From an uncultured Chloroflexia bacterium (lineage in GTDB: Bacteria; Chloroflexota; Anaerolineae; Aggregatilineales; Aggregatilineaceae): a stretch of DNA of 64,000 bases. The notes beneath the pieces are model-generated. The model did not search any database, was not told the origin of the DNA, and worked only from the letters and a program-made list of their open reading frames with translations. The first letter of the stretch is position 1, and each line of letters starts with the position of its first letter. The position numbers were made by a program, and so were the translations under genes. The stretch covers positions 300,645 through 364,644 of the forward strand of contig CAVWCQ010000008.1 of NCBI GenBank assembly GCA_963753545.1. The letters are read 5' to 3'. Below, piece by piece: positions 753-56,310 of the stretch.

Positions 753-1307
753 ATGGTGAAGCCCTATGATAAGCAGATGCGGCTCCTTCGCAAGGGGCAG
801 TTAGGCGAAGAGCGTGTTCTCAATGTGATGTACAGCGTTCTCGATGGGCGGTGGTGGTTGTTTCGCAACCTGGAACTGCCGGGGCGGCGCATAGGCGATC
901 TTGATTTGGTTCTTGTCGGGCCATGTGGCATGTGGAACTTTGAGGTCAAAGCCTACAGCGGCGAATACCGGAATGTAGGTGAGCGCTGGGAAAAGCGCAG
1001 CAATTCAAAATGGTATTCTGTCCGCAAAAGTCCAACCCGCCAAGCCAAGCGCAATGCGGCGGAGTTGGGACAACTCCTCTCAACCCATCAGATTAAACAA
1101 TGGATCACGCCTGTGATCATTTGGGCCAATCCAAAATCTACGGTTGTGCCTGACAATCCATCGGCCCCTGTTTGGACTCTCGATCAGCTCAGCGGATGCT
1201 TGAAAGACCTGAGCAGTGAACGGCCTATTCCAGAAGGGCAAGTTGAGAAGATAGTCGATGTTCTCAAGAAAATCTGCCAGGACGCTGACGCCGAGATCAG
1301 CGATTGA
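753..1307 (+). CDS. NERD (nuclease-related) domain protein. Putative PD-(D/E)xK-like nuclease.
   Basis: LGEERV...DLDLVLVGPCGMWNFEVK matches the NERD domain signature (D...ExK). Standalone size of 184 aa. Confidence 0.6.
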   Translation: MVKPYDKQMRLLRKGQLGEERVLNVMYSVLDGRWWLFRNLELPGRRIGDLDLVLVGPCGMWNFEVKAYSGEYRNVGERWEKRSNSKWYSVRKSPTRQAKRNAAELGQLLSTHQIKQWITPVIIWANPKSTVVPDNPSAPVWTLDQLSGCLKDLSSERPIPEGQVEKIVDVLKKICQDADAEISD

Positions 1308-1378
1308 AATTCTCACCTCCCAGGCGGAGATTTGCGGCGGCGTGGTAGGGATGGCTACGATCAGCGCAGGAAGTAACG

Positions 1379-2122
1379 ATGAAAGGACAGCCGACCATGC
1401 CGATCACCATTCGGGAACTGCACCGCTGGGACGTCGCACCGGACGAAGCGATCCGGCTGCAAAAAGAACTCGCCGGGCAGGTGATCACCGATCAGCCGCT
1501 CGATCTGGACGGAATCCGGCTGGTGGGCGGCGTCGATGTCAGCGTGAAGGACGATATCAGCCGGGCGGCGGTCGTCGTGCTGCGCTACCCGGAACTCGAT
1601 CTGGTCGAGGCGGCGCGCGCCGAACGCCCCACGACCTTCCCCTATATTCCCGGCCTGCTGTCTTTTCGAGAGGGCGCGGTGATCCTGGACGCCATGCGCC
1701 ACTTGCAGATTGTGCCCGATGTGTTCATGTTTGACGGGCAGGGGATCGCCCACCCGCGCCGGATCGGGATCGCCTCGCATGTCGGGCTGTTCATCGATAT
1801 GCCGACGATTGGCTGCGCGAAGTCACTGCTGACAGGCAAATTTGACATCCTGCCGCCGGAAAAAGGCGCATGGCAGCCGCTGATCCACCGGGGCGAGACG
1901 ATTGGAGTCGCGCTGCGCACGCGGACGAATGTCAGCCCGATCTACGTATCGGTGGGCCACCGGGCGACACTGGACACGGCCCGCGAGATCGTGCTGCGCT
2001 GTGCGACGCGCTACCGCCTGCCGGAGACGACGCGCACGGCGCACATCACGGCGGGCAGTCCGGGGGAGGATGATGAGCAGCACGGCGGCGAGGATGCAGG
2101 TGAGCAGTTGAGTTTGTTCTGA
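1379..2122 (+). CDS. nfi: endonuclease V (deoxyinosine 3' endonuclease)
   Basis: Motifs YIPGLLSFREG and DGQGIAHPRRIGIASHVGL...PTIGCAKS are typical of EndoV. Length ~240 aa. Confidence 0.85.
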   Translation: MKGQPTMPITIRELHRWDVAPDEAIRLQKELAGQVITDQPLDLDGIRLVGGVDVSVKDDISRAAVVVLRYPELDLVEAARAERPTTFPYIPGLLSFREGAVILDAMRHLQIVPDVFMFDGQGIAHPRRIGIASHVGLFIDMPTIGCAKSLLTGKFDILPPEKGAWQPLIHRGETIGVALRTRTNVSPIYVSVGHRATLDTAREIVLRCATRYRLPETTRTAHITAGSPGEDDEQHGGEDAGEQLSLF

Positions 2123-16444: not shown

Positions 16445-17760
16445 AGACGGACTCCTTACTATCCACGTACGGCGGACGTTCTTGAGATTGTGACTACTCC
16501 CCACGCCTAAAGGCGGGGGCTTCTATCGGACCGGGCCGAAGGCTCGTTAGTCCACGAGCCAGAATATTTAAAGCAGCGTTTAAATCGCGGTCTATTCTCA
16601 GGCCGCAGTGAGGACAGTCGTGGATTCGCACACTCAACGCTTTGGGAACAGTCGCGCCACAGCCGGAACACAGTTGCGTCGTGCCTCTGGGGTTGACACG
16701 CAGTACAACACGCCCGGCGCTCTCAGCCTTGTACGTGGAGAACTGCACGAATTGAGCCCAGGCCACATCGGCAATATTGCGGTTGATGACTCGCTTCCTG
16801 TCCGACTGCATATCCTGGATGTCCAGGTCTTCAAACACCATCACCTGATAGGCATCCACCAACTGGCGCGACGCCTGATGAGCAAAGTTCGTTCGTCTGT
16901 TCGCCGCACGGCGATAGGCATGATTGAGCGCGCGCAGGACGCGGCGTCGCGCCGGGCTGTCGGTGGCATACCGTTCTTTTTGGCGCTGCAAGCGGGCAAT
17001 ATCCGCCGCGTCCTGTTTCATCCAGCGCTGGCGCTTGATCTGACCCCCGTCCGACAGGGTGGCGAACGTCTTCAATCCGAGGTCAATGCCCACCACGTGA
17101 TCGACCAGCGGCAGCGGTTCGGCTGTCGACGGCACACGACAAGCAGGCAGACCAGTTGCCGACCGTATCGCGGCGGATGGTGACCGTTTTAATGGTTCCT
17201 TCAACCGGACGGTGCACTTTCACCCGCACCTGACCGATTTTGGACAGCAAGAGCCGTTCGCCGTCCAGCCGAACGCCGTTCCCATACTGGGGATAGGTGA
17301 CGCTGTCGTACCACCCGCGCCCCTTAAAACGGGGGTAGCCCGCCGTCTCCCCCGCTTTGACGCGGCGGAAGAAAGCTTGAAAAGCGAGGTCAACACGCTT
17401 GCATGCCTCTTGCAGACTTTGCGAAAAGGCGTGGTTGAGGAAGGGTTGTTCGGTTTTCCAACCCGGGATCAGGTTGATGGTATCAAAACAGCTAAGGGTT
17501 TCGTGGTTCATCTCCCAGGCCTCGCGGCGTACCTCCAGGGTCGTGTTGTACACCCAGCGACAGGCGTCCAACGCGCGCAGCAAAGCACTCCGCTGGGCCG
17601 CCGTGGGCAGCAGTCGATACTTGAAAGTCCGGGTAAGCATCAGCCCTCCCAACAGCACCCCCCACCGAAACTTGCGTCTTGCTGAGGTACGTCCAGGCGG
17701 TAGGGTGCGCTGGACGCAAGCAGACCCTTCCTATCCTACCTCATCTTTCTTTCCGATTAC
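16440..17760 (-). mobile_element. IS1341/ISC-type element carrying only tnpB
   Basis: tnpB without tnpA. Ends are approximate and no clear terminal hairpins were verified by eye. Confidence 0.45.
16494..17658 (-). CDS. tnpB: IS200/IS605-family TnpB (OrfB) RNA-guided nuclease with an apparent frameshift near 17150
   Basis: N-terminal OrfB_IS605 region (17083..17658). C-terminal RuvC-like plus zinc-finger region (CSGCG...CPHCG) in a different frame (16494..17204). Confidence 0.8.
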
Positions 17761-24341: not shown

Positions 24342-24486
24342 TCCCTCAGATAGACGCATAAAAACAGTGTAGCGGGAACGAAAGTTATCCGCTGGGCGCT
24401 TGCCTGCCGCCTGCCTGATTTTGCTGCTGAGAATAAAGCACGGATGTGCTACAATTGGGGGCATCCGAGCAAAGAGAGAGCGATGT

Positions 24487-26383
24487 ATGAGCGACTATAT
24501 ACCCAGCGCACATATCCAGGACATCTTACAAAACCTTCCGGCGTCACCCGGCGTGTACCAGATGATCGATCCCAACGGCATGATCATCTACGTGGGCAAG
24601 GCGAAGAGCCTGCGCAACCGCGTGCGGAGCTACTTCCAGCCGAGCAACTATGACTCGAAAGTGCTGCGGCTGCGGGCCGAAGTGGCCGATATCCAGTTTT
24701 TGCTGACCGGGGATGAACTGAAGGCGCTGATCACCGAAGCGGAGTTGATTCGCGTCCACAAGCCGCGCTTCAACATTCTGCTGAAGGATGACAAACATTA
24801 CCCGTATATCCGCGTGCGGACGGGCGATCCGTTCCCAACGGTTGAAATGACGCGGCGTTTGGAACGCGGCGACGGTCACCGCTACTTTGGGCCGTTCACC
24901 TCGGCGGGGGGTGTGCGCGAGACGCTGGATGTGCTGCGCAAGGCGTTCCCCTATCTGACCTGTGATCGCGAGATCACCGGGAAGGATGCTCGCGCCTGCC
25001 TCTATTACGATATCAAACTGTGCGGCGCGCCGTGCATCGGGGCGCAAACGCGCGATGAATACTGGGCCGGGATTACCGGGCTGATGCGCGTGCTGGCGGG
25101 CCATGCCGACGAGGTGCTGGCGGATCTGCGTGGGGCGATGGAAGCCGCTTCGGAAAATCTGGACTTTGAGAAGGCGGCGCTGCTGCGGGATCGGATTCGC
25201 GTCGTGGCGCAGATTTCGGCCCGGCAGCGGTTGGTGCGCTGATTTTGAAGCGAACCAGGACGTGATCGCCTTCGCGCAGGAGGGCAGCGACGCCGTCGTG
25301 CAGATGTTCCTGATCCGCAATGGCAGACTGGTTGGCAGCGAATATTTCGCCCTGTCCGGCGCGGAAGACGAAACCGCCGACGAGATTATCGAACACTTCC
25401 TGACGCAGTTTTACCAGGAGGCCACCGACATCCCGCCGGAAGTGGTCGTGCCGAACGATCTGATCGAGACGAAGATCATCGAGCAGTGGCTGCGGGATCG
25501 GCGCGGCGGCAAAAAGGTCAAACTGGTCGTGCCCCAGCGCGGCAACAAGCGCGAACTGGTCCAGTTAGCGGCTCAGACTGCCTCGGAGAAACTGAATATT
25601 CTGCGGGCGCAGTGGGCCAGCGATACCGTCAAACAGGAAGCCGCGCTGAGCGAAATCCAGGAGGCGCTCAGTCTGCCGACGCCGCCCAACCGGATCGAGT
25701 GCTACGACATCAGCACGACGCAGGGCACGGCGATTGTCGCCAGCCGGGTTGTGTTTGTGCAGGGTGTGCCCAAAAAGGGCGAATACCGCCGCTTCAACAT
25801 CCAGACGGTGGCTCACGAAGGATCGGACGATTACCAGTCGATGCGGGAGGCGCTGACGCGGCGTTTCCGGCGCTATACGGATGCGGTCAACGCCGAACAG
25901 GCCCCACTGCCGCCCGGCAAAGAGGATCACGAGGAAACGTGGCGGGTGCTGCCTGATCTGCTCATTGTGGACGGCGGCAAGGGGCAGTTGGGCGTGGCGG
26001 TGGAAGTGCTGCAAAGTTTCGATCTGTTTGGGCGCGTACCTGTGTGCGGCCTCGCCAAACAGTTCGAGGAACTCTACCTGCCCAACGATCCCAAACCCGT
26101 TATTCTGCCGCGCCGCAGCGAGGGGTTGTTCCTGCTGCAACGGGTGCGGGACGAGGCGCACCGCTTCGCGATCACGGCCCATCGTGCCCGCCGCGCCAAA
26201 GCAGGACTTGCCAGCCAACTGGAACAGGTACCCGGCATCGGCCCGGCCCGGCGCAAAGCCCTGCTGAGGGCATTCAACAAGGATATCGAAGCGATTCGCG
26301 CCGCCAGCATCGACCAATTGATCACCGTGCCGGGTATCACGCGGGAGATCGCGGAGAATATCAAGGCGACATTGGGGGGCTAG
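24487..26383 (+). CDS. uvrC: excinuclease ABC subunit C with an apparent frameshift near 25238
   Basis: GIY-YIG N-terminus (GVYQMIDPNGMIIYVGKAKSLRNRV). UvrC C-terminal RNase H-like and HhH regions are in the second frame (25103..26383). Confidence 0.85.
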
Positions 26384-34965: not shown

Positions 34966-35007
34966 GGCGCGACGGCTTAGCTTCGCACGCTTGCAGCGCC
35001 CGTACAA
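34966..35007 (+). repeat. REP2 hairpin-CTACAA-type element
   Basis: GCGCGACGGCTTAGCTTCGCACGCTTGCAGCGCCCGTACAAC. Confidence 0.55.
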
Positions 35008-35035
35008 CTTTTGTTGCCTACAAGAACGAGGACGC

Positions 35036-36450
35036 ATGACGGATACACAATCGACTTCCGATCCGCTGGATGGGCAGCATGTGGTCGTGCTGGGATTCGC
35101 ACGGCAGGGCAAGGCACTCGCCCGCTGGCTGCCTACCATTGGCGCGCAGGTGACGGTCTCGGATACACGAAGCACGGCGGCGCTGGCCTCAGAACTGGGC
35201 GAATTTGCCGGGCTTCCTGTCCAGTTCGCGCTGGGCGGGCACCCGCTGGAACTTTTGGACGGCTGCGATCTACTCTGTGTGAGCGGGGGCGTTCCGCTGA
35301 CGCTGCCGATCATCCAGGAGGCGTTCCAACGCGGGATTCCGGTGACCAATGACGCGCAGTTATTCCTGGAACGCTGTCCCGCGCCTGTACTGGGCATCAC
35401 CGGGAGCGCGGGCAAAACGACAACCACAACGCTAGTCGGGGCGATGTGCCGGGCATCCGGGCGGCGGACGTTTGTCGGTGGCAATATTGGCGATGTGCTG
35501 CTCGACATGCTGCCGCAGATCGGCGGGCAGGATATCGTCGTCATGGAACTGAGCAGCTTCCAGTTGGAACTGATGACGGTCAGCCCGGATGTATGCGCCG
35601 TGTTGAATGTGACGCCGAATCACCTGGATCGACATGGCACGATGGATGCCTACAGCGCGGCGAAGGCCCAGATTTATCTGCACCAGACGCCGAGCGACGT
35701 GGCGATCTTTGGCTATGATGATCCCGTTGCTGAGCGGATGAGTCATGAAGCGCCGGGCGAGTCGCCTATTTTTCGCTGCATTCCGCTGTGCCGTCGGGCG
35801 CATATCTCAAGGGGCAGGAACTCGTCGTGGTGGGCGATAGTTCGCCAGGGGCGGAGTGGCGGACGATCTGCCCCCGGGATGAAATCCGGCTGCGAGGCGA
35901 GCACAACGTGGCGAATGTGTTAGCCGCTTGCGCTGTCGCCGGGGCGGGGAGCATCTCACCGGAAGCGATGCGCCGCGCGATAGGTTCCTTTACGGGAGTC
36001 GAGCACCGCCAGGAACTGGTGGCAACGATCAACGGCGTGACATGGGTGAATGACAGCATCGCCACCGCGCCGGAGCGAGTCGTTGCTGCGCTACGCAGTT
36101 ACAGCGAACCGCAGGTGCTGCTGGTCGGCGGGCGCGACAAAAACCTGCCCTGGGAGGAGATGGCCGATCTGGCTGTGACCCGCTGCCGGGCGGTGATCGG
36201 GTTTGGCGAATATGGGGCCAGGGCTATCGAGCATATCGAACAGGCGAGGGAGCGGGCGGCGGGATCGATGGTGGAGCAGGTGCATGTGGTGGATACGCTG
36301 GACGAGGCCGTGCAGCAGGCTTCTGCAATCGCCCAGCCCGGCGACGTGGTGCTGCTCAGCCCAGGCGGAACGTCGTATGATGCGTACCAGGATTTCGCGG
36401 CGCGGGGGCAGCATTTCCGGGATCTGGTGCACGGGCTGGCAGCCGGGTAA
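35036..36450 (+). CDS. murD: UDP-N-acetylmuramoylalanine--D-glutamate ligase with an apparent frameshift near 35780
   Basis: N-terminal GKxVVVLGxxRQG, Mur ligase GITGSAGKTTTT. The C-terminal domain continues in the second frame (35788..36450). Confidence 0.8.
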
Positions 36451-37331: not shown

Positions 37332-38681
37332 ATGACCGACGCACCTCAATACATCGAAGACGATGCCGATTTTAACTATGCCGACGCGCTGAACGTGCCA
37401 GCCCGGTCTGCTGTGCCGCCGCTGGACGAGCGTCGAGTCGCGGAACGCCGCCGCCTGTATGCTGCCGGGTTCGATTTGTATCTCGCGCTGACGGTGGGTG
37501 TGCTGTGCGCCATTGGTCTGATGATGGTTTACAGTGCGTCGATGGATGTCAGTTATCAGGTCACGGGCGACAGCGCGACGTATTTCTTTATTCGCCAACT
37601 GCGTTCGATGGTTGTGGGAGTGATTGCGCTGATCGTCCTGGCGCGGGTGGACTATCACAACTGGCGGCGGTTGGCTGTACCCATGATGTTCGGCGTGATC
37701 CTGCTGCTGATTGCCGTGCTGCGGTTTGGCGAGACGCGCTTTGAAGCGCAACGCTCGCTTATTCGTGGATCGTTCCAGCCCGGCGAACTGGCAAAGTTCA
37801 CGGTCGTGATCTATATGGCGGCGTGGCTGGCCTCCAAACGCAACAGGCTGCGGCAGGTTACGTATGGTATTTTGCCGTTCAGTGTGCTGATTGGCACGGT
37901 AGCCTTTTTGATCGTGCTCCAGCCGGACCTGAGCACGGCGGCGAGTATTCTGGCGACGTCTCTGAGCATGTTCTTTATCGCCGGGGCCGACTGGTTCCAA
38001 CTGCTGTTGATTGGCGGGGTGATGGGTTTTGCCGGGTGGCAGCTCATGACCAAACTTGCCTACGCCCACAACCGGCTGGTCGCCTATACGGCGGCGGTCA
38101 ACGACCTGACGCGGGCCAGCGATCATGTCCAGCAGGCGATTGCGGCGTTTATCAACGGCGGCCTGTTTGGGGTGGGGTTGGGCGAAGGGCGGCAGAAATT
38201 TGGCAACAATATGCCATTCCCACACACGGACAGTATTTTTGCCGTGATCGGGGAAGAACTGGGATTGTTAGGTAGTTTTATGGTGATTTCCCTGTTCGTG
38301 ATCCTGATTTACCGGGGCTTCACCATTTCGCGCCGCGCGCCGGATGCTTTTGGGGCGCTGCTGGCAGCGGGCGTTACCTGCTGGCTGGCCTATGACGCGC
38401 TGCTGAACATCGCCGTGATGACGGCACTTGTCCCGCCGACGGGCGTGCCGCTGCCGTTTATCAGCTACGGCGGATCGGCCCTCGTGGCGGCGCTGTCCGG
38501 AGTTGGGTTGATGCTCAATGTGTCGCGGGCGATCAGCAGGAACGCAATGCCCAGGCGGAAACAGACGCCTGAATTTAATTCATCGACAGAACGGAGTCAT
38601 TCGAGTGCGGATAGTGATATCAGCCGGGGGAACCGGGGGCGGCGTGTACCCCGCGTTAGCCGTCGCCGGGGCGCTGCGTAA
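37332..38681 (+). CDS. ftsW: FtsW/RodA/SpoVE-family peptidoglycan glycosyltransferase
   Basis: ~10 TM helices with conserved SEDS-family motifs, located between murD and murG. Confidence 0.8.
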   Translation: MTDAPQYIEDDADFNYADALNVPARSAVPPLDERRVAERRRLYAAGFDLYLALTVGVLCAIGLMMVYSASMDVSYQVTGDSATYFFIRQLRSMVVGVIALIVLARVDYHNWRRLAVPMMFGVILLLIAVLRFGETRFEAQRSLIRGSFQPGELAKFTVVIYMAAWLASKRNRLRQVTYGILPFSVLIGTVAFLIVLQPDLSTAASILATSLSMFFIAGADWFQLLLIGGVMGFAGWQLMTKLAYAHNRLVAYTAAVNDLTRASDHVQQAIAAFINGGLFGVGLGEGRQKFGNNMPFPHTDSIFAVIGEELGLLGSFMVISLFVILIYRGFTISRRAPDAFGALLAAGVTCWLAYDALLNIAVMTALVPPTGVPLPFISYGGSALVAALSGVGLMLNVSRAISRNAMPRRKQTPEFNSSTERSHSSADSDISRGNRGRRVPRVSRRRGAA

Positions 38682-39786: not shown

Positions 39787-39847
39787 AGGGCGGGTTAACA
39801 AATCCGCCCCTACAAAAATGGGCGCGGCAAGCAGCGCCCCTACAAGG
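39787..39847 (+). repeat. two tandem REP2 units (hairpin + CTACAA)
   Basis: GGGCGGGTTAACAAATCCGCCCCTACAAAAATGGGCGCGGCAAGCAGCGCCCCTACAAGG. Confidence 0.6.
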
Positions 39848-39996
39848 TAATTGGCGAGGGCGTAAAGGACAACATGCGGTGGGAGTAGTATTTTGGTTCA
39901 ACTGGCGCGTAATGGAACTTTGTAGATACTAATTTATGTAGGACACTGCGATTTTTGCCGGGGCCGCCGGATGTATCCAGTAGAGGGGCTAAACGT

Positions 39997-40527
39997 ATGG
40001 TGCAGCTCTCCACGGTTTTATGGACTTCCATCCTCTTATTTGCCTTTATCGGCTATATGCGTGGCTGGACGAAAGAAATCTTAGCGACGGCAGGCATTGT
40101 CCTGGCGCTGTTCACGATCAAGCAGTTTGAAACGCTCCTGATCGATCCCCTGACTAACGGCGAGCAGACCTCGAAATTTTACCTGGAAGCGACTATTCTG
40201 CTGACGCTGGCCTTCTTTGGCTATCAGACACCGCCAGAGCGATTCGTCCGCAGCAAAAAATCCGTGATACGCGAGGGCGTGCAGGAGGGCATCCTGGGCG
40301 CACTGGTCGGAGCGTTGAACGGCTACCTGCTGGTCGGTTCGCTGTGGTGGTACATGGATAACCTGGAATATCCACTCAGCCCGCATATTATTCCGGTTGC
40401 GCCTGGCTCAGCCAGCGCCAATATGGTCGATGTGCTGCCGCTCAGTTGGATGTTGGGCGGTGACGGCGGCATTCTGTCGCTGATCATCATCGTCCTGTTC
40501 ATTTTTATTATTGTCTCCTTCGTGTAG
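39997..40527 (+). CDS. CvpA-family membrane protein
   Basis: ~4 TM helices. CvpA-like topology and size. Confidence 0.55.
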   Translation: MVQLSTVLWTSILLFAFIGYMRGWTKEILATAGIVLALFTIKQFETLLIDPLTNGEQTSKFYLEATILLTLAFFGYQTPPERFVRSKKSVIREGVQEGILGALVGALNGYLLVGSLWWYMDNLEYPLSPHIIPVAPGSASANMVDVLPLSWMLGGDGGILSLIIIVLFIFIIVSFV

Positions 40528-40563
40528 CCCTGGCGATGTAGAGAGATTGAGGACCAGAATCCC

Positions 40564-41714
40564 GTGCGATTTTCACGGATTGTTTTGGAAAACTGGCGCA
40601 ACTTTGGACAGGTTGAGGTTGCGCTGCAAAACCGGGCCTTTTTACGTAGGGCCGAACGCATCCGGAAAGTCCAATTTTCTGGATGTCTTCCGTTTTCTGC
40701 GCGATCTGGTTGTGCCCGGCGGTGGTTTTGAGCAGGCAGTAACGAGTAGAGGTGGCTTTATACAACTGCTCAATATGGGGCAGCAGAGCCATATCCCTTA
40801 TCTTGATATTATGATTTAGGTTGAGTTATCTGAGAATGATGCTGTTTGGCGTTACCGTATTGCTTTTTCCGCAGATGTGGGCGCAACCAAACCTCTATGT
40901 AAAACAGGAACAAGTTTGGGTCGGCGACACCCTGGTTTTGGATCGGCCCAATGCACAGGATCGGAATGATCCTGATCTGCTCCGGCAAACCTATTTGGAA
41001 CAAACCGTTGTTAACCGCCCTTTCCGCGAGATTGTCGATTTTTTCGCCTCGATTAAGTATTTCCATTTTGTGCCACAGTTGGTGCGCGAGGCAGGCGGGC
41101 GCAAGCGCGAAGATGATCCCTATGGCAGTGATTTTATTGACCAACTCACGCGTATGAATCCTGAAGCGCGCCAGGAACGATTAGACCAGATTCAACAGGC
41201 GCTTAAAGGAGCGATCCCTTCTTTACTGGAATTGAAGTTGGAACGCATTCAGGATGTTTTTCACTTGAGGGGACGATTTCGTGTTCAGTCCGCAATGGCG
41301 AAAAGCGCGTGGCATAATGAAACTGATTTTTCGGATGGGACGCTGCGCTTGATCGGGCTGTTGTGGGCGCTGTTGGATGCACAGGGGCCACTGCTTTTGG
41401 AAGAGCCTGAATTGTCGCTTCATGAGGCGATTGTTCGCCATATTCCTATGTTGATCTGGTCCGCAATACGCGGCACGGATCGGCAGGTATTGTTAAGCAC
41501 ACACAGCAGCGATTTGTTGATGGACGAGGGAATAGCACCTGACGAAATCCTGGTATTTATCCCGGCTTCTACTTCCGAAAACAGCACGATCAAAGTGGGC
41601 ATTGATATTGGCGAGGTGCGCGATCTGCTGGGGGCAGGGCTGCCACCGGGTGAAGTTTTCATCGCTTACACTCAGCCGAAAGATATCAATTCACTCTCGC
41701 TTCGAGGAGAGTGA
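40564..41714 (+). pseudogene. OLD/AbiEii-like AAA ATPase (AAA_21-type ABC ATPase) carrying two frameshifts and an in-frame TAG
   Basis: Reconstructed N-terminus MRFSRIVLENWRNFGQVEVALQNRAFL-VGPNASGKSNFLD (Walker A). C-terminal part has Walker B/D-loop LLLEEPELSLHEAIV and LSTHSSDLL. Lesions: a frameshift at the T5 run near 40640, TAG at 40817-40819, and a frameshift near 40900. Lower GC than the flanking mur genes. Confidence 0.65.
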
Positions 41715-41717
41715 TGG

Positions 41718-42332
41718 TTGGACCAAGGGGAGAATTCGTTTCTCGTATATTTGGCTGTCGAGGGCGATGTTGATGAGGCAGTGGCCCGGCGCATCCTGGA
41801 ATATGTTGATCTGCCTCACTACTTGTTGGCATCACCACCGAACGGGAAGGCGAAACTTCTGGAAAATATGCCCAAGTACAATGAGGCGGCAAAATGGAAT
41901 TGCTGGTTTGTGCTGGTAGACCTGGATCAGAAGCCGGAATGCGCGCCTGATTTGATTCAAACGGTGCTGCCAAAGCCCAGCAAGGGGATGCGGTTTCGGG
42001 TCGCGGTTCATGCGATGGAAGCATGGCTGTTAGCCGATACCGATCATTTATCTGATTTCCTGCATGTGCCACAGACGAAGTTTCCAACTAACCCTGATGC
42101 GGAACTGAATCCGAAAGTTTCGCTGGTGAATCTGGCTCGGCACAGCACTCGCGAGGAGATTCGCAAGGATATGGTTCCTCGCGAGGGTAGCGGCGGCTCA
42201 GTGGGGCCGGGTTATACGGATCGTTTGAGAGAATTTGTAATCACTCGTTGGCGACCAGAAGCGGCGGTTGAACGTTCGGACAGCTTACGGCGCTGCATTG
42301 CAGCATTACAAACATTGAAAAACTGGAATTAG
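41718..42332 (+). CDS. small Toprim-like protein (resembles DUF4276-type partners of AAA_21 ATPases)
   Basis: FLVYLAVEGDVDEAV (conserved Glu in the EG..E motif) and FVLVDLDQ (DxD) resemble Toprim catalytic motifs. Start is 4 nt after the ATPase stop and the gene ends 4 nt before murC. Confidence 0.5.
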   Translation: MDQGENSFLVYLAVEGDVDEAVARRILEYVDLPHYLLASPPNGKAKLLENMPKYNEAAKWNCWFVLVDLDQKPECAPDLIQTVLPKPSKGMRFRVAVHAMEAWLLADTDHLSDFLHVPQTKFPTNPDAELNPKVSLVNLARHSTREEIRKDMVPREGSGGSVGPGYTDRLREFVITRWRPEAAVERSDSLRRCIAALQTLKNWN

Positions 42333-42335
42333 AAA

Positions 42336-43739
42336 ATGCTCCACCCTGGACAGCACATTCACATTGTGGGCGTGGGCGGCTTTGGCATGTCAGCTATCGC
42401 CCGCGTTCTGCTTCAGCAGGGCTACACCGTCAGCGGTTCGGATCTGCGTGAAAATGAATTCACCCGCGATCTGGCCGCAGCGGGCGCGGCTATCTACATC
42501 GGTCATGCGGCGGAAAATATCGCCGGGGCGGATGTGGTCGTGATTACCTCTGCCGCGACGGAGAGCAACCCCGAAGTGAGCGCGGCGCAACGGCAGGGAC
42601 TCCCTGTCTTGCGGCGGCGCGAGATGCTCAGCGAGGTGATGGCTGGGCAGATGGGGATCGCTATTGCCGGGACACATGGCAAAACCACCACAACCGCTTT
42701 GATGGTCCACACGTTGATCGAAGCGGGGCGCGACCCATCCTATATCGTCGGCGGCGTGATGCAAAATACGGGCACCAATGCCGGGGTGGGGCGGGGCGGC
42801 CTCTTCGTGATCGAGGCGGATGAATATGACCGGATGTTTCTCGGCCTGCGCCCACAGATTGCCGTGGTCACGAACATCGAACATGATCATCCCGACTGCT
42901 TCCCAACCACGCGCGACGTCGTACTGGTATTCGAGCAGTTTGCCGATCTGCTGCCTGCGGACGGAGTGCTGATCGCCTGCAACGATGATCCGGCGGCGGC
43001 AGGATTGGCCTGGAAGCGTCGCAGCGCCGGACTCCCTGTGCAGACCTACGGCACCCAACACACTGCTCCTCCGCCAACGTGGAGCGCGGAAAATCTGGTC
43101 TCTGACGACCAGGGCGGAATCAGCTTCACGGCGCGGCACGGCGATCAGGTGATGGGGCGGGTGCGGCTGAATTTATCCGGCAAACACAACGTACTCAACG
43201 CGCTGAGCGTGTTGGCGGTGGCGGACCTCTTAAAAATCCCGTTTGAGCCAGTCGCAGCGGCATTTAACTCATTTTTGGGAACGGGGCGGCGCAGCGAAGA
43301 AATGGGGCAGGCAGGCGGCGTGACGGTGATCAGCGATTACGCGCACCATCCCACGGCGATTCGGGTGACATTGGCGGCACAGCGGGATCGTCCCGGCATC
43401 CGGCATGTGTGGGCTGTCTGGCAGCCGCATACCTATGGGCGGATGCGCATCCTGGCGGATGAGTTTGCCCATGCTTTCGGAGCCGCCGATCATGTGCTGG
43501 TGACGGGTGTTTATTCGGTGCGGGAGCAGATCACACCGGGATTGGATGCACCGGGCATGGCTGATCTGATCCGGGTGATGGAAGCGGGAAAAGACGTGCG
43601 CTGTACCGGATCATTCGACGCGACGGTGAGCGCGCTGATCGAGGGTGTGCAGCCTGGCGATCTGGTGCTGATCCTCTCGGCAGGTGATGCACCGCAAATC
43701 GGCCAACGCCTGCTCGATTACCTAAGAATTTGTTCGTAA
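42336..43739 (+). CDS. murC: UDP-N-acetylmuramate--L-alanine ligase
   Basis: HIVGVGGFGMSAIA, GTHGKTTTT and Mur ligase middle and C-terminal domains. Confidence 0.9.
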   Translation: MLHPGQHIHIVGVGGFGMSAIARVLLQQGYTVSGSDLRENEFTRDLAAAGAAIYIGHAAENIAGADVVVITSAATESNPEVSAAQRQGLPVLRRREMLSEVMAGQMGIAIAGTHGKTTTTALMVHTLIEAGRDPSYIVGGVMQNTGTNAGVGRGGLFVIEADEYDRMFLGLRPQIAVVTNIEHDHPDCFPTTRDVVLVFEQFADLLPADGVLIACNDDPAAAGLAWKRRSAGLPVQTYGTQHTAPPPTWSAENLVSDDQGGISFTARHGDQVMGRVRLNLSGKHNVLNALSVLAVADLLKIPFEPVAAAFNSFLGTGRRSEEMGQAGGVTVISDYAHHPTAIRVTLAAQRDRPGIRHVWAVWQPHTYGRMRILADEFAHAFGAADHVLVTGVYSVREQITPGLDAPGMADLIRVMEAGKDVRCTGSFDATVSALIEGVQPGDLVLILSAGDAPQIGQRLLDYLRICS

Positions 43740-43745
43740 ATTATT

Positions 43746-43786
43746 GGGCGCAGGGCTTGCTTCGCAAGCTGGCAGCGCCCTTACAT
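43746..43786 (+). repeat. REP2 element
   Basis: GGGCGCAGGGCTTGCTTCGCAAGCTGGCAGCGCCCTTACA. Confidence 0.55.
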
Positions 43787-44723
43787 GGTACTGGTGCGGG
43801 AGCAGCCGATGAATGAACTTTATGCCCCGCTGGCGGATCGCTTTGGGGCGGCGCTGCGGCGGAACGATCCCCTGGCGCGTTATACGGTGGCGCGGTTGGG
43901 TGGTCCTGCCGATGCGCTGCTGATCGCCGGATCGATGCCTGACCTGACGCATGCCATCAAACTGGCCCATGAGTATCACATCCCCTGGATCATTCTGGGC
44001 GGCGGCGCGAATGTGCTGATCGCGGATAAAGGCTATCGCGGGCTGGTGATTGTCAACCATACGCGAGCGGTGCGTCTGAACGATGACGGGACGCTGGTCG
44101 CGGAGAGCGGCGCAAATCTGACCACCGTCGCCCGGCGCTGCATGAGTCAGGGCTGGGCTGGGCTGGAATGGGCCGTTAACGTGCCAGGGACGGTTGGCGG
44201 GGCGGTAATCAACAACGCGGGCGCGCACGGCGGCGAAATGTCGCAGTCGCTGCTGTCGGCGGAACTGCTCGAACTGGGCGAAAAGGCGGGGATCGCGCTG
44301 TGGCCCGTTGAAAAAATGGCATACGCTTACCGTTATTCGGCGCTGAAGGGACAGCATGGGCGCTATGTCGTGCTCTCGGCGCAGCTTCGGCTCGAACCGG
44401 GGCACGATCCGGCAGCCCTCAACGAAAAGGCCGACGGATACATCGCGCACCGCAAGCGCACGCAGCCGCCGGGAGCCAGCCTGGGCAGCATCTTCAAGAA
44501 TCCGCCGGGGGATTACGCGGGCCGACTGCTCGAGGCTGCCGGGCTGAAGGGGCAGTCGATTGGCGGCGTGCTGATCTCGCCCGTCCATGCCAATTTCTTC
44601 ATCAACACGGGGCACGGCACGGCGCATGACTATTTCGCGCTGATCCAGTTGGCGCGGGAGACGGTCGAGGAGAAATTCGGCGTCCGGCTGGAGTTGGAGA
44701 TCGAGACGCTGGGCGAGTGGTGA
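43785..44723 (+). CDS. murB: UDP-N-acetylenolpyruvoylglucosamine reductase
   Basis: FAD-binding PCMH domain ([17 protein letters not shown]). C-terminal MurB domain ([11 protein letters not shown]). Confidence 0.9.
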
Positions 44724-44812
44724 AAAGAAAAAGCAAAGAAATTTCACCGCGGAGAGCGCAGAGAACGCAGAGAAAAGCAAAAGAGAGTAAAGAGAAAAAA
44801 GAATTTCATCAA
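44723..44812 (+). repeat. REP1 copy (extended) after murB
   Basis: GAAAAGAAAAAGCAAAGAAATTTCACCGCGGAGAGCGCAGAGAACGCAGAGAAAAGCAAAAGAGAGTAAAGAGAAAAAAG. Confidence 0.7.
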
Positions 44813-44829
44813 GGACTTTTTTCAGCCCC

Positions 44830-46300
44830 TTCAGCTCGGCTTTATCCATATTCAGGCGACATAGCAAAGGGCCTCCACGAGATCATCAAGGACGGCGGCA
44901 GGAAATGCAAGAAGTCGGGTGTTGGTGAGGGAGTTCGAGAATTTAGCGTGCTGCCAGAGGTAACGGCGGACGAAGGCGATGACGTCGGAAAAGGTGGCCT
45001 CCGGCTTGGTGTACCAGACGGCGGAACGAGTGGGTAGGGGCTGGTCGCTGAGCAGATGGTGGGCCAGCAGGGTGACAAGCGAGAACAAACCCAGGATAGC
45101 GGGGGTGGTCCGGGCAATAGCGAGGGGATTCCATTGCCGTTGGGTCTCAAAGCCAAGATGGGCACGACATTCTTGAAAGGTGACTTCGACATTCCAGCGC
45201 AGCACGTACCAGGCGATAATCTGCTCGGCACTGACGGTCAGGTCGGTGCAGCAGAAAGCAGCGGCCTTGAACTTGCCAGCCGGATCGCGGACCAGCACCC
45301 AGCGGATGGGCAGCGGGTCTTTCTGGCTGGGGGTGTGCCAGAGCGCTGTCCCGCTGACCCACTCGACTTGCCGCGACTTGCCGCCATACCAGGCGATAGT
45401 CTGCTGGGTCCAGCTGGTGTGGGGGTATCCAGGTGGGCTTGCAAGGTCGGCTGCCGGGGGCCGAGGCGGGGCGTTTTCCCCCGTTTGCCTGGCGCTTTCG
45501 GCTGGGGCGGATCGAACAGGCGAATATTGAGATGCAAGCGCGAGACAAAGGTGACGGGGTGCCGATAGCGATTACAGCGCAGCCCCAGGCGGACGGCGAT
45601 CAGCCCGCCATCGGTGATCAAAACCAGCGAGCGCTCCGGCAGCCAGGCGCGGACCTGGCTGGTCATCTGCCGCACCCAGTCAATGCTGGTTTTGTGCCGC
45701 TGTCCCAGCGCCTGGTTCGTTTTCTCATGCGGGGCCAACGCCGTCAAAACGGGCAGCGCCCAGGGCCGTTTACTCCAGGGAACCGAGACCACGATCATCA
45801 AACTCACCCAGCGCAAGCCTTCACTGGCAATACTGTGCTTCTCACTCGACAACACCGCATCCCGGAAATGCCCTTTGGTAGCGAGCAGTTTGGCGCGCTG
45901 CCCTTCCAAGGTTTCATCTGCTGCCAGGATGACGGGTGCGCCTGCTGCCACAAACGCCGCCACCAGCAGCCCCAACAGGATACGGCTGACCCGCAGACTC
46001 GACCAGTGCGCTCGGTTCAACACGCGGTGATAGTTTTGATACTGTCGTTCCTGGCTCAACCCCATGATGCGCAGTATCGCCGTCACCGTCCGTTGTTTCG
46101 GTGCCAGAATCGCCCCCAGCACCAGCACCTGGACCCAGTGCCAGATCCGTTCGCTGAAAACTGGCGCAAAGTGTTGCAGCACGACCATAATCTCTGCGGG
46201 CATGGTAAGCATAGAACCTCCTTTGAACAGAAGTCCCAGCTTACCTTGCCCTTCTTTTTCGTCCACCATATGGAAAAAGTCGACTAAAGGGACTCTTTCC
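44830..46300 (-). mobile_element. IS701-family insertion sequence between murB and the WD40/ftsQ genes
   Basis: Transposase gene with short flanks. Terminal inverted repeats not confidently identified. Ends approximate. Confidence 0.45.
44852..46213 (-). CDS. IS701-family (IS4 superfamily) DDE transposase with an apparent frameshift near 45300-45550
   Basis: N-terminal MLTMPAEIMVVLQHFAPVFSERIWHW...AILAPKQRTVTAILRIMGL (IS701-like). C-terminal DDE region (IIAWYVLRWNVEVTFQECRAHLGFE) is in a second frame. Confidence 0.7.
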
Positions 46301-46351
46301 AGCGGGCTTATCGGTTTTTCTGCTAGACCCAGCGCTGGGATGCAAAAAACC

Positions 46352-50717: not shown

Positions 50718-50991
50718 CCCCTCTCGGTTCAGCAAAAGCGGCTGAACTTGCGTATAGAGGGACTGGATGAGAGGGAACGCTAACGGCTATTGGCTAAAAT
50801 GCACGGTTTGTAACCAGCTAAAGTAAGAGAATTCAAACCGTTTTGGACAGAGGATAATTTTCGCTATTTCAGAAAGACTGTAGAATAAACATTAAAGCGG
50901 GGAGCTACTGGCGAGGTCGCCGGCATGTTTGCAGGCCAAGACAACAAACGGGAGGCGACCGAGTTGTGCATTATTCTAGGAGGGTAACTGG

Positions 50992-52243
50992 ATGAATGAG
51001 CCACTGCCTTTGGGCGAAAACTTTGCAAGTATTAAAGTGGTTGGGATCGGCGGCGGCGGCGGCAACGCGGTCAACCGGATGATCGAAGAAGGTTTGGGCG
51101 GCGTTGAATTTATTGCGATTAACACCGACGCACAAGCCCTCCTGCTCAGCAAGGCCAAGACGCGTGTTCGCGTTGGCGAAAAACTGACGCGCGGCCTCGG
51201 CGCAGGTGGAAACCCCGATGTAGGCCGTAAAGCTGCCGAAGAAAGCGCCGACGAACTGTATGAAGTGCTGCGCGGCGCGGATATGGTGTTTATTACCAGC
51301 GGCATGGGCGGCGGAACGGGCACAGGTGGTGCCCCGGTGATCGCGCAGGTCGCCAAAGAACTCGGCGCGCTGACCATTGGCGTGGTGACACGTCCGTTCA
51401 CGCTTTGAAGGATCGCGCCGCATCCAGGGCGCTGAAGCGGGCATCGAAGCGCTGAAAAGCCAGGTGGATACGCTGATCGTGATCCCCAATGACCGCCTGC
51501 TGCAAATCGTGGACAAGCGCGCCAGCCTCAACGATGCTTTCCGGCTGGCTGATGATGTGCTGCGGCAGGGTATCCAGGGCATTTCCGAACTGATCACCGT
51601 TCCTGGCCTGATCAACCTGGACTTTGCCGATGTCCGCACGATTATGTCGGAAGGTGGGGCGGCGCTGATGGCAGTCGGTCGTGCCAGCGGCGAAGATCGC
51701 GCCCGCAAGGCCGCCGAAGAAGCGATCAGCAGCAGCCTGCTCGATGTGACCATCGACGGCGCGCGCGGCATCCTGTTCAACGTGACGGGCGGCCCCAATA
51801 TGAGCCTGTTTGAAGTGAACGAGGCCGCCGCGATTATCAAGGAAACGGCGCACCCCGACGTGAACCTGATCTTTGGCGCGGTGATCGACGAGAATATGGC
51901 GGACGAAATCCGCATTACGGTGATCGCCACCGGATTCGAGCAGTCTCGCGTGGCGACACGCCGCCCGGTGAATGCTAACGAGCGCATCCGCCCGGCAGCA
52001 GCGAATACAGCGGCCCGCCCGGTCGCTCGCCCGGCACAACAGCCGCAGCAGCAACCCCAGCAGCCGCCTCAGCAGCCCCAGCAGAACCAGGATTTGCTGG
52101 ACGATGACCTGGAACTGCCCGGCGCGCCGCAGCAGTCACAGCCGCAGCAGCAACCTGTGGTGCGCAAGCCCGAAGAGGAATTCACCTCACGGGTGTACGA
52201 CACAAATGACCTGGATATTCCGGCGTTTTTGCGCCGCCGCTAG
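50992..52243 (+). CDS. ftsZ: cell division GTPase FtsZ with an apparent frameshift near 51400
   Basis: GGGGNAVN and [13 protein letters not shown] tubulin motifs in frame 1, ending VVTRPFTL*. The continuation (F)[32 protein letters not shown] and the rest run in frame 2 to the conserved C-terminal peptide [13 protein letters not shown]-rich linker. Confidence 0.9.
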
Positions 52244-53244: not shown

Positions 53245-53351
53245 AGCACATCAAGCCAATTTGAACATTTCGTGGATGGTTCGACCTGTTCAGGCGCAGA
53301 ACCCAGTATTTGATTTTTGTTTTTCCGGGCTGCGCCACACCGATATCACGG

Positions 53352-56310
53352 CTGCACAAGGAGATGGAAATGGTGGATGTGAGGAAGAAGAAGAACAAAG
53401 ATGTTGATCCGCGTGCAAATGGCTTTCAGAAGTTGACGTTACCGTCCGACCTATCGCGCGATATCCCGCTGGGGGAGAACGCGCGAACGGTGCTGCGCAA
53501 ACGGTATCTGCGGCGCGGCGAAGACGGCCAACCCGTTGAAACTGAACAGGAAATGTTCTGGCGCGTTGCCTATCATGTCGCGAAGGCCGAGGAAGAATCG
53601 GGCGGCGATGTGGACGGGGCAGCGCGCTCTTTTTATCACCTGCTGACGGATTTACGATTCTTCCCGAACAGCCCGACTTTTACCGGGGCGGGTACTCCGC
53701 TGGGGCAGCTTGCCGCATGTTTTGTGCTCGCCATCGAAGACGATATGGGCCGGACAGGCACGGGCATCTTCGAGACGCTGCGCAATGCCGCGCTGATCCA
53801 GCAGACGGGCGGCGGCAACGGCTTTTCGTTCAGCCGTTTGCGTCCCAAAGGGGCGATTGTGCGCTCATCCAACGGCGAGGCAACCGGGCCGATTGGCTTC
53901 CTGCGCGTCTACGATCAGGCGTTTGGGGAGATCGCTCAGGGGGGAGTCAAGACGTGGGGCGAATATGGCTGTATTGCGGGTGGATCATCCCGATGTGCGC
54001 GAATTCATCACCTGCAAGACGGACGAGAACCAGATCACCAATTTCAACATCAGCGTGGGCATAACGGATAAGTTCATGTCCGCTTGTGAAAAAGACGAGG
54101 ATTTTGACCTGATTAACCCGCAGGATGGCAAGGTCTGGGAAACCGTTCGGGCGCGCGAATTGTTCGATCTGATCGTCAAGCATGCCCATCACAACGGCGA
54201 GCCGGGCGTGCTGTTCCTGGATGCCGCCAACCGCGATAATCCCGTGCCACATCTATACGAATTGGAGAGTACGAATCCTTGTGTGACTGGGGATACGCTT
54301 GTCGCGACTCCTGCTGGTTGGCGGCGAGTAGATGAGATTCAGGCCGGGGATGTGATCTGCACGGTTCTCGGCACTGGGCGCGTTGAAACGGTCGAGGTTC
54401 ACGATGCGATGCCCGTTTACGCGGTGCATTTCTCCGATGGCGGCATGGTAAAGGCGACAGCAGCCCATCAGTTTTATGTGTATGATCCCCTGTCTGATTC
54501 CTATGTGCCGCGCCGGGTTGACCGCCTTCGTTTGGGCGAAGCCGTGCATGTGTTCCAGCCTGTGATGGCGGGTATGGTGGAAGCAGAGCAGGTCGATCAG
54601 ACTGCAACAGTGGTTCAGATCGAAGAGGCCGGAGTTGATACGGTGTACGACCTCTATGAGCCGGAAAGCGATACCTGGATCACCGAAGGGTATGTCTCGC
54701 GGGGCTGCGGCGAGCAGTTCCTTGGCCCATATGAAAACTGCTGCCTGGGATCGATCAATCTGGCCCAGCATATCACGGCGGATGATCGCGTGGATTGGGA
54801 CAAACTGCGCGAAGCGGTCGAACTGTCTACGCGCTTCCTGGATGATGTCGTATCCGCGAACAAGTACGTGCCCGCCGTGCCGGAGCTAGAGAAAGCCGCT
54901 CACCGCGTTCGCCGCATTGGGCTGGGGATCATGGGGCTGGCGGATATGATGTATGCGCTCGGCGTGCGCTACGGCTCCGTCGAGGGGCAGGAATTTGCCA
55001 GCCAGATCATGGAATTTGTGCGCTTCCACGCCATGCGGACCAGCATCGAACTGGCGCAGGAGCGCGGCCCCTTCCTGGCAATTGAGGGCAGCATCTATGA
55101 TCCCGCCAATCTGAAGTGGCAGCCGCCGAAGTCGCTGGTTCCGTATAAACACGACTGGGGCCGTCCGGCACTGGATTGGTCGCTGATCGTGGCGGGGATC
55201 AAAGAGCACGGAATTCGCAATGGGGCGCAGTTAACTACCGCTCCAACCGGAACAATTTCTACGGTTGCGGGATGCGAGGGTTACGGCTGCGAACCTGTCT
55301 TCGCGCTGGCCTATATGCGCTATGTGAACGACAACGGCAAAAAGCTCACGCTGCAATATACCAGCCCGCAGTTCGAGAAGGCGCTGCGCGACGCCGGGCT
55401 GGATGATCCGACAATCAAGCGCATTGTCGAGCAGGTGAACCAGACAGGAACCTGCCAGCATATCAAGGAAGTGCCGGAGCATATCCGCCGCGTGTTTGTC
55501 GTCAGCGGGGATGTAAGCGCTGAGGAGCATGTTCGGATGCAGGCGGCACTGCAATCGTTCACTGACAATGCTATTAGTAAAACTGTGAATTTTCCCGTCG
55601 GGGCTTCTGAAAAGGATGTAGCGACGGCCTATATGCTCGGCTGGAAGCTCGGCTGCAAGGGGCTGACCGTCTATGTGACCGGGAGCCGCGAAAAGGTCGT
55701 GTTAGAGACGGCGGAAACGGCGAAAAAGAAGGAAGCGCCGCAGCCTGCCCCACAGCCCATCGCGCAGAGCAAGACACTCTTTAACGAGGAAAAGAAACCA
55801 CGTCCCCGCCATCTATCGGGCAAGACGTACCGCGTCCAGACGCCGCTCGGATCAACTTATGTGACCGTCAATGAGAACGGCGAAGGCGCGGGCCAGCCTT
55901 TCGAGGTCTTCCTGCACAACGCCAAAGCCGGATCGGAGACCGCGGCGGTATCGGAAGCGCTGGGGCGGCTGATCTCCTACCTGCTGCGCCTGACCTCAAC
56001 GGTCAGCCCGCGCAACCGCCTGACCGAGATCGTCCGGCAGTTAAGCGGCATCGGCGGCGGGCAGTCGGTTGGATTCGGCCCGGCGCGGGTGCGGAGTTTG
56101 CCGGATGGCGTGGCGCAGGTCTTGCAGGAATACCTGGACGAGAGCGAAGGACTGCTCGATGAGTCCGTTCCGGCGGCGGAACCTATATCGGAGAAACAGC
56201 TCACGCTGCCGTTGAAGCTGGGCGATCTGTGCCCGGAGTGCGGATCGGCTACGCTGGTCAATGAGGAAGGCTGCCGCAAGTGTTATAGCTGCGGGTTCAG
56301 CCAGTGCTAG
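53352..56310 (+). CDS. nrdJ: adenosylcobalamin-dependent ribonucleotide reductase (class II, NrdJ) containing a mini-intein. Apparent frameshift near 53950 at an extra A in GTCAAGACG.
   Basis: [40 protein letters not shown]...[19 protein letters not shown]-terminal Cys cluster. Removing one A restores [20 protein letters not shown]. Confidence 0.85.
54280..54705 (+). other. 142-aa mini-intein inserted in the NrdJ NPC-GEQ active-site motif. Non-canonical C-terminus.
   Basis: Block A CVTGDTLV, block B TAAHQF, block [23 protein letters not shown], then +1 Cys (CGEQ). The last two residues are RG rather than HN. Confidence 0.7.

Follow-up and report, generated by a model that had tools for sequence, protein, structure and literature searches.

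A HEC-01-like ATPase and Toprim gene pair conserved within the dcw operon of an Anaerolineae lineage

Organization of the locus

The window, which is the whole stretch of 64,000 nucleotides analyzed here, carries a dcw operon on its forward strand. Reading along this strand, ftsW (37332-38681) and murG (ending at 39720) are followed by a gene for a cvpA-like membrane protein (39955-40527; Pfam Colicin_V, 1.6e-8). Further along lie murC (42336-43739) and murB (43785-44723). Between cvpA, its upstream flank, and murC, its downstream flank, sits a cassette of two genes (40564-42332) that points in the same direction as the mur genes. The first gene of this cassette (40564-41714, forward strand) encodes an ATPase that resembles the A protein of the HEC-01 family, and its reading frame is broken. 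The second, referred to below as gene 2 (41718-42332, forward strand), is intact. It encodes a protein of 204 amino acids that resembles the B protein of the same family, has a predicted Toprim fold and is a distant relative of DUF4276.

The genes are packed closely together. The TGA stop codon of the ATPase gene ends at 41714 and the TTG start codon of gene 2 begins at 41718, which leaves a spacer of three nucleotides. A spacer of the same length separates the TAG stop codon of gene 2, ending at 42332, from the ATG of murC at 42336. No integrase, repeats or other scars were found in the cassette, and its junctions are tight and operonic. A scan of the forward strand of the module for internal promoters and terminators gave nothing above the shuffled expectation. 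An IS element is located 2.5 kb downstream of the cassette.

The base composition of the cassette differs from that of its surroundings. Raw GC content falls from about 0.62 to 0.49-0.53 over the two genes, and it is also low in cvpA (0.54). The cassette is set apart better by GC content at third codon positions (GC3), which is 0.53 in the ATPase gene and 0.55 in gene 2, against 0.69 in cvpA, 0.70 in murC and 0.77 in murB. A preliminary description of this DNA, made from the sequence alone, had reported a low-GC cassette with tight junctions between cvpA and murC. Its coordinates are correct, and the low GC content is borne out as a deficit in GC3.

The ATPase

After correction of its frame, the ATPase has a length of 382/383 amino acids. 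Residues 1-380 of the reconstructed protein align to positions 1-380 of the 382 positions of the PADLOC profile for HEC-01A (PDLC04180), with an E-value of 7.6e-126, so that the match covers the full length of the family model. The protein also matches the Pfam family AAA_21 (PF13304; 92.1 bits against a gathering threshold of 27; E 8.9e-26; positions 5-304 of 304) and the family AAA_15, both of which had been expected from the sequence. Against the sequences in the PDB the sole match was that of the first 57 residues to GajA.

All of the motifs of an ABC ATPase are kept in the window and in its relatives. These are the Walker A motif, the Q-loop, the signature SDGTLRL, the Walker B motif LLLEEPE, the D-loop and the H-loop. 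The motifs quoted in the preliminary description could all be located, namely GPNASGKSNFLD and LLLEEPELSLH in the ATPase, and VEGDVDE and VDLDQ in gene 2.

The Toprim-fold protein

The product of gene 2 matches the PADLOC profile for HEC-01B (PDLC04194) with an E-value of 1.8e-60, residues 9-202 falling on profile positions 5-199 of 204. Its relation to DUF4276 (PF14103) is much looser. The Pfam match reaches 16.8 bits against a gathering threshold of 30.2 (E 0.0081) and covers only residues 87-115. Weak matches to the same family (E 0.01 or better, best 2e-6) are seen in 18 of 36 homologues of gene 2. By these profile comparisons, the gene 2 family appears to be a distant relative of DUF4276 and no clear member of it. 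No NCBIfam family qualified for either of the two proteins.

For gene 2, AlphaFold2 gave a confident model from 36 homologues, with a pLDDT of 90.3 and a pTM of 0.87. Its alpha/beta core has four parallel strands, with a glutamate after strand 1 and a DxD motif after strand 3, which is the arrangement of the Toprim superfamily and agrees with the fold that had been proposed from the motifs. The positions of the glutamate and of the DxD motif in Toprim domains have been described (PMC12065111), and the invariant, metal-binding acidic residues of the gene 2 family (E15, D19, D68-x-D70 and E101) sit at these places. Searches of the PDB with gene 2, by Foldseek and by sequence, returned nothing significant. 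A profile of the 36 homologues found no match among PDB sequences even at an E-value of 10.

Relation to known systems

[quoted passage not shown] When placed in E. coli, it gave no protection against any phage tried (bioRxiv 10.1101/2024.01.29.577857). Since the family was negative in its one phage test, a role in defense across the family is a prediction and not a fact.

The pair in the window belongs to the HEC-01 family, as an ABC ATPase (A) followed by a small, Toprim-fold, nuclease-like protein (B). The likeness lies in the gene order and in the profile matches, which extend over the full length of both proteins; the gene for B is directly downstream of the gene for A. The difference lies in the location. 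HEC-01 was described inside Hma systems, whereas the window pair is inside a dcw operon and is conserved vertically. The earlier assignment to a family of ATPases paired with a Toprim or DUF4276 partner was thus right in kind and can be refined to HEC-01, although the match to DUF4276 itself stays below the threshold.

Other systems that combine an ATPase with a Toprim domain can be compared with the pair. An example is PARIS, in which the ABC ATPase AriA and the DUF4435 Toprim protein AriB are separate polypeptides in one complex (PMC11464382). At 204 amino acids, gene 2 is far shorter than AriB, which has 305, and neither Pfam nor PADLOC gave a match of gene 2 to AriB or DUF4435. The link between the window ATPase and PARIS runs through the generic AAA_21 core. 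The resemblance of gene 2 to the PARIS partner is, judging by the predicted model, structural only.

In OLD proteins of class 1 and class 2 (the Old protein of P2 and the OLD protein of Burkholderia) and in GajA, both domains are found in one polypeptide. In the window the two domains are encoded by two genes, and separate open reading frames with a stop codon between them are seen in the window and in all relatives. Gabija also needs the helicase GajB, and no helicase gene adjoins the window pair.

DUF4276 is a domain of the Toprim superfamily that is paired with ATPases of the AAA_15/21 type (PMC12065111). It occurs in MADS, where Mad3 and Mad4 form a pair of an AAA ATPase and a DUF4276 protein, and in NsnC of Menshen. 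These systems resemble the window pair in combining an ATPase with a domain of the Toprim superfamily. The NCBIfam model for MAD3, however, scores 61.1 bits against a cut-off of 420. There is no methyltransferase or other MADS gene near the window pair, whose neighbors are cvpA and murC. PARIS, OLD, Gabija and MADS were each considered as the identity of the pair, and each was rejected on these comparisons.

Distribution of the family

Relatives of gene 2 are numerous. More than 1,100 were found in the protein collection, and 484 loci were found in the genomes of species representatives. Among the best 80 of these 484 loci, which come from many phyla, the ATPase gene is directly upstream of gene 2 in 79. 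The two genes form an obligate adjacent pair and are strictly co-inherited.

Outside the dcw operon, the pair is found in many different surroundings. A census of the neighbors at loci of this kind yielded 152 Pfam families among 150 neighboring proteins, many of them metabolic, and no common genomic context emerged. Neighbors belonging to Hma systems were seen at only 2 of about 45 sampled loci. Such a lack of common neighbors is typical of a small cassette inserting at many different sites.

Inheritance within the dcw operon

Relatives of the locus were found by a scan with the MurC protein of the window. About 55 of these are more distant, with a MurC that has 44-53% identity to that of the window. 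In these Chloroflexota-like loci cvpA adjoins murC directly, and ftsW, murG, cvpA, murC and murB are contiguous. The preliminary description had expected cvpA to be followed directly by murC in related clusters, and this is what these relatives display. As the adjacency of cvpA and murC is ancestral, the pair is an insertion in evolutionary terms.

The insertion is not confined to the window. The same pair occupies the same site in at least eight lineages, which comprise the window and seven relatives (L002, L003, L007, L008, L009, L012 and L089; L003 is identical to L004-6 and L011). The core proteins of these closer relatives are 65-79% identical, and the pair is intact in all seven of them. 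In 5 of the 7, the stop codon of gene 2 overlaps the start codon of murC by 1-4 nucleotides.

The pair diverges together with its flanks. Between L003 and L009, identity is 93% for the ATPase and 90% for gene 2, compared with 91% for MurC and 94% for MurG. Between L003 and L012, the corresponding values are 70% and 68%, compared with 78% and 81%. The ratio dN/dS between L003 and L009 is 0.13 for the ATPase, 0.11 for gene 2, 0.17 for MurC and 0.10 for MurB. These ratios, close to 0.12 for the pair, indicate purifying selection in the carrier clade.

Neighbor-joining trees built from the ATPase or from the concatenated pair place the copies embedded in dcw in one clade. The sister group of this clade consists of loci outside dcw in an Anaerolineales MAG and a Latescibacterota MAG. 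Bootstrap support for the clade is just 36-49%, so that insertion may have occurred repeatedly at the same site.

A single relative, L091, is informative about loss. It does not carry the pair, and the stop codon of its cvpA overlaps the start codon of murC. In a tree of core genes, the lineages with the module and L091 together form a group in 200 of 200 bootstraps, while the group that leaves out L091 is recovered in 14 of 200. The nested position of L091 implies that it lost the pair, which is therefore dispensable. The simplest history suggested by these trees is one gain followed by at least one clean loss. The pair is absent from L091 and from the roughly 55 distant relatives, and this distribution makes it a lineage-specific component that has been conserved in the dcw operon, accessory rather than a universal core gene.

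An account close to that of the preliminary description, which had seen a defense-like module inserted in an essential operon and possibly counter-selected there, is that a mobile defense cassette arrived recently and is being purged as its location is harmful. A low GC3, three lesions in the ATPase gene and an IS element 2.5 kb downstream all speak for this account. It is nevertheless highly improbable. Seven other lineages have the same pair at the same site, intact and under purifying selection, and the cassette lacks an integrase, repeats and scars and is joined to its neighbors by tight operonic junctions. The preliminary description had itself named a conserved place of the two genes in related dcw clusters as evidence against its reading, and this is largely what was found; recent insertion is contradicted by the synteny and is rejected. 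Its remark that the placement within an essential operon is unusual holds in that the pair is an insertion in evolutionary terms, but the feature is old, clade-wide and selected.

Across the clade, GC3 of the dcw copies is 0.47-0.75, against 0.78-0.92 for the adjacent mur genes; no larger deficit was seen at any of the 76 loci examined. Despite its long residence the module still looks foreign, with a GC3 of about 0.5 compared with about 0.85. Possible causes are a continued import of alleles, weak selection on codons, or selection that keeps expression low.

A second alternative is that the pair has been domesticated. In this case it would have a housekeeping or checkpoint role tied to the cell wall or to division, such as a processing of nucleic acids that is coupled to the cell cycle, and not a role in defense. 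The conserved position in dcw, the coupling to murC, a dN/dS of the same low order as in the mur genes and the inactivity of HEC-01 in its only phage test are all in keeping with such a role. On the other side, L091 is nested in the clade with full bootstrap support and lives with cvpA joined directly to murC, and the roughly 55 more distant relatives also live without the pair. The motifs are the same as in homologues scattered through unrelated contexts outside dcw, and the window's own ATPase may be dead. Domestication is rather doubtful on this balance.

Lesions in the ATPase gene

The preliminary description had counted three lesions in the ATPase gene, two frameshifts and one TAG codon. 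Two +1 shifts and the TAG are indeed present, and the shifts divide the gene into three segments, all on the forward strand. The first segment (40564-40644) holds the 27 codons of the N-terminus and reaches as far as the strand that precedes Walker A. It is 89% identical in frame 1 to the intact homologue of L002 (tblastn) and identical in a sister strain, L001. Lesion 1 is an extra base at 40645 (TTA[C]GTAGGG), which shifts the frame within the strand of Walker A, immediately ahead of GPNASGKS. At this spot L001, too, has a +1 shift, with different bases. The second segment (40646-40893) runs from the Walker A motif GPNASGKSN onward and contains lesion 2, the in-frame stop codon TAG at 40816-40818; L001 reads CAG at this position. 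Lesion 3 is an extra T at 40894 (AAACC[T]CTATG) that is absent from L001. The third segment (40895-41714) carries the Q-loop LRQTYLEQ, the signature FSDGTLRL, the sequence LLLEEPELSLH and the H-loop STHS, and it ends with the TGA at 41712-41714.

L001 provides an independent contig (ENA ERZ25039513) that shares 98% identity with the window over 40517-46305. There, too, the ATPase gene is broken, mostly elsewhere, with insertions of its own at 40786, 41154-41183 and 41459-41461. Over these 1.15 kb the window shows two or more indel events and L001 five or more. Across gene 2, murC and murB, a distance of 3.1 kb, there are no indels between the two. In the databases searched there was no near-identical intact ATPase; apart from the broken fragment of L001, the next best match has 61% identity.

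The differences between the two ATPase alleles are mostly synonymous. Their pS is 0.09-0.15 and their pN 0.006-0.016, which gives a pN/pS of 0.04-0.18, and the differences are concentrated at 41300-41600, at up to 9%. For gene 2, murC and murB, pS is about 0.02. The ATPase alleles appear from these values to have diverged under purifying selection, to a depth about seven times that of the flanks, and this excess points to an exchange of alleles by recombination at the locus. A long-standing neutral pseudogene is ruled out by the same pN/pS.

It is likely that at least some of the lesions are real. Two independent assemblies are both broken in the ATPase gene, yet they show no indel in the next 3.1 kb; one break site is common to both, and the TAG is a substitution and not an indel. 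Less probably, though with a fair number of observations in its favor, all three lesions could be errors of assembly or consensus and the gene could be intact in the organism. In the window, uvrC, murD, ftsZ and a ribonucleotide reductase gene (nrd) are each split over two frames, in agreement with the lesions that had been noted elsewhere in the window. Such genes cannot be pseudogenes, and their frame breaks show that the assembly contains indel errors. The break in ftsZ, near 51404, is an insertion outside a homopolymer (ACG[C]TTT) and so of the same type as lesion 1, while murD is broken at a run of five T (near 35770) and the ribonucleotide reductase gene at a run of six G (near 53940). 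Homopolymer runs of at least five bases are more frequent in the ATPase gene (5.2 per kb) than in the neighboring genes (1.4-2.1 per kb). The catalytic motifs of the ATPase are all intact, the low pN/pS fits a working gene, and the name of the L001 contig is in the style of Flye, which suggests long reads.

The state of the window, with a broken ATPase frame beside an intact Toprim gene, can therefore be read in either of two ways. It may reflect a recent inactivation that is partly common to the sister strain, one lesion lying in an N-terminal segment that was not exchanged and is common to both strains. It may also, less probably, be an artifact, in which case the consensus errors would sit in a stretch that is AT-richer and heterogeneous between strains. 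That the gene is decaying or counter-selected, as had been suggested, is unproven, given that ftsZ, murD, nrd and uvrC are also broken and that the alleles differ mostly at synonymous positions. Since ftsZ and murD look as broken as the ATPase gene, frameshift counts in this assembly should not be taken for biology without a check of the reads.

Proposed origin and mechanism

The history that best fits these observations begins with an ancestor of one subclade of the Anaerolineae (Chloroflexota), which probably gained one copy of HEC-01 exactly between cvpA and murC. The pair would then have been inherited with the dcw operon and kept under purifying selection. Co-transcription of the pair with the dcw operon is very probable, and gene 2 is translationally coupled to murC. 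Placement in the operon would give the pair constitutive co-expression with it.

OLD, Gabija and PARIS offer a model of how the pair may act. If it resembles them, the ATPase would probably hold or sense a trigger and then license the Toprim nuclease. Once licensed, the nuclease may cut nucleic acid as an abortive-infection or defense response, which would stop infected cells. Against this reading in terms of defense, long vertical retention in an essential operon is atypical of defense genes.

The junction with murC bears on how the pair persists. Because the 3' end of gene 2 contains the initiation region of murC, imprecise deletions would be costly. Such a cost may explain an intact gene 2 even if the ATPase gene is broken. 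Taken further, the same reasoning leads to a selfish or addictive module that is kept by its position, deletions putting murC expression at risk whether or not the host benefits. This would suit the overlap or close abutment of the gene 2 stop codon with the murC start codon, and also the window, where the more distal ATPase gene is broken but the Toprim gene that adjoins murC is not. It does not explain a dN/dS near 0.12 along the whole of both proteins, and L091 shows that a clean loss that restores the coupling of cvpA to murC is possible. Persistence by position alone is distinctly unlikely; inheritance of a selected pair from a single gain is the preferred account.

Implications

Modules of the defense type normally sit in islands with a fast turnover. 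A search of the literature for defense systems embedded in dcw found no paper that joins dcw with anti-phage functions or with an ABC ATPase. The point of interest here is the conserved embedding of a HEC-01 pair in the dcw operon; the family itself is a known candidate.

One further idea is that the pair was co-opted in one clade of the Anaerolineae as a permanent part of the operon, coupled to murC and with a function in the envelope or the cell cycle. This is unlikely. The pair could then be a guard that fires its nuclease in response to a hijacking of peptidoglycan synthesis or division, or it could take part in a processing of nucleic acids that is not immune in nature. Either would explain why HEC-01 gave no classical phage defense in E. 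coli.

The locus offers a natural system for two questions, namely what the role of the pair is and whether embedding in an essential operon stabilizes an accessory module. Material for both is at hand in the intact carriers, in one clean loss (L091) and in the window, where an inactivation may be under way.

Frame breaks and a divergent patch

Several genes of the window outside the module are split over two frames. These are uvrC (24400-26383), murD (34991-36450, broken at a T5 run), ftsZ (50980-52240, broken at ACG[C]TTT), and the gene for the large subunit of ribonucleotide reductase, nrd (53310-56310, broken at a G6 run). Because all four are essential genes, the assembly of the window contains indel errors.

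The strain of the window and its sister strain, known from contig L001, elsewhere differ by 0.5-1%. Within the ATPase gene, in contrast, nucleotide divergence reaches 9% between window 41300-41600 and L001 790-1090, and nearly all of it is synonymous. Judged from the two sequences, this patch suggests allele exchange inside the gene.

Composition of the module

In four relatives with an intact module (L002, L007, L008, and L089), GC3 is about 0.5 in the module genes and 0.8-0.9 in the adjoining mur genes. The low value has been kept in these relatives despite long vertical residence.

Neighbouring genes and mobile elements

An IS-type transposase gene lies directly past murB, within the dcw cluster, at window 44852-46269 (minus strand) and L001 4349-5708. 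It is broken into two ORFs, many indels separate the two copies, and a DDE_5 match was found in the L001 copy. A TnpB/IS605 OrfB-like gene at window 16494-17658 (minus strand), with HTH_OrfB_IS605, OrfB_IS605, and Cas12f1-like TNB domains, is broken into two overlapping ORFs. At window 753-2122 (plus strand), a NERD-domain gene (2.6e-17) immediately precedes an endonuclease V gene (8.5e-74).

The 234-nt spacer between murG and cvpA holds two GC-rich hairpins (window 39788-39840). The first, GGGCGG...CCGCCC, occurs once in the window; the second, GGGCGCGG...GCGCCC, was scored as a terminator-like site on the minus strand.

Variation of the dcw cluster among relatives

In L088, a relative whose MurC is 69% identical to that of the window, the 162 nt 5' of murC (L088 1-162) encode neither the C-terminus of gene 2 nor that of cvpA. 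The gene arrangement before murC, read from this short contig, may therefore be different again.

Lineage-specific inserts other than the module are found in the dcw clusters of the relatives L003 (2975-5025; likewise in L004, L006, and L011) and L002 (2757-2981 and 4241-6043). One relative carries a 286-aa ORF and an N6/N4 DNA-methyltransferase-like gene in the ftsW-murG gap, and another a 600-aa ORF in the murG-cvpA gap. The dcw cluster of this clade seems to tolerate accessory genes, which are possibly defence-like.
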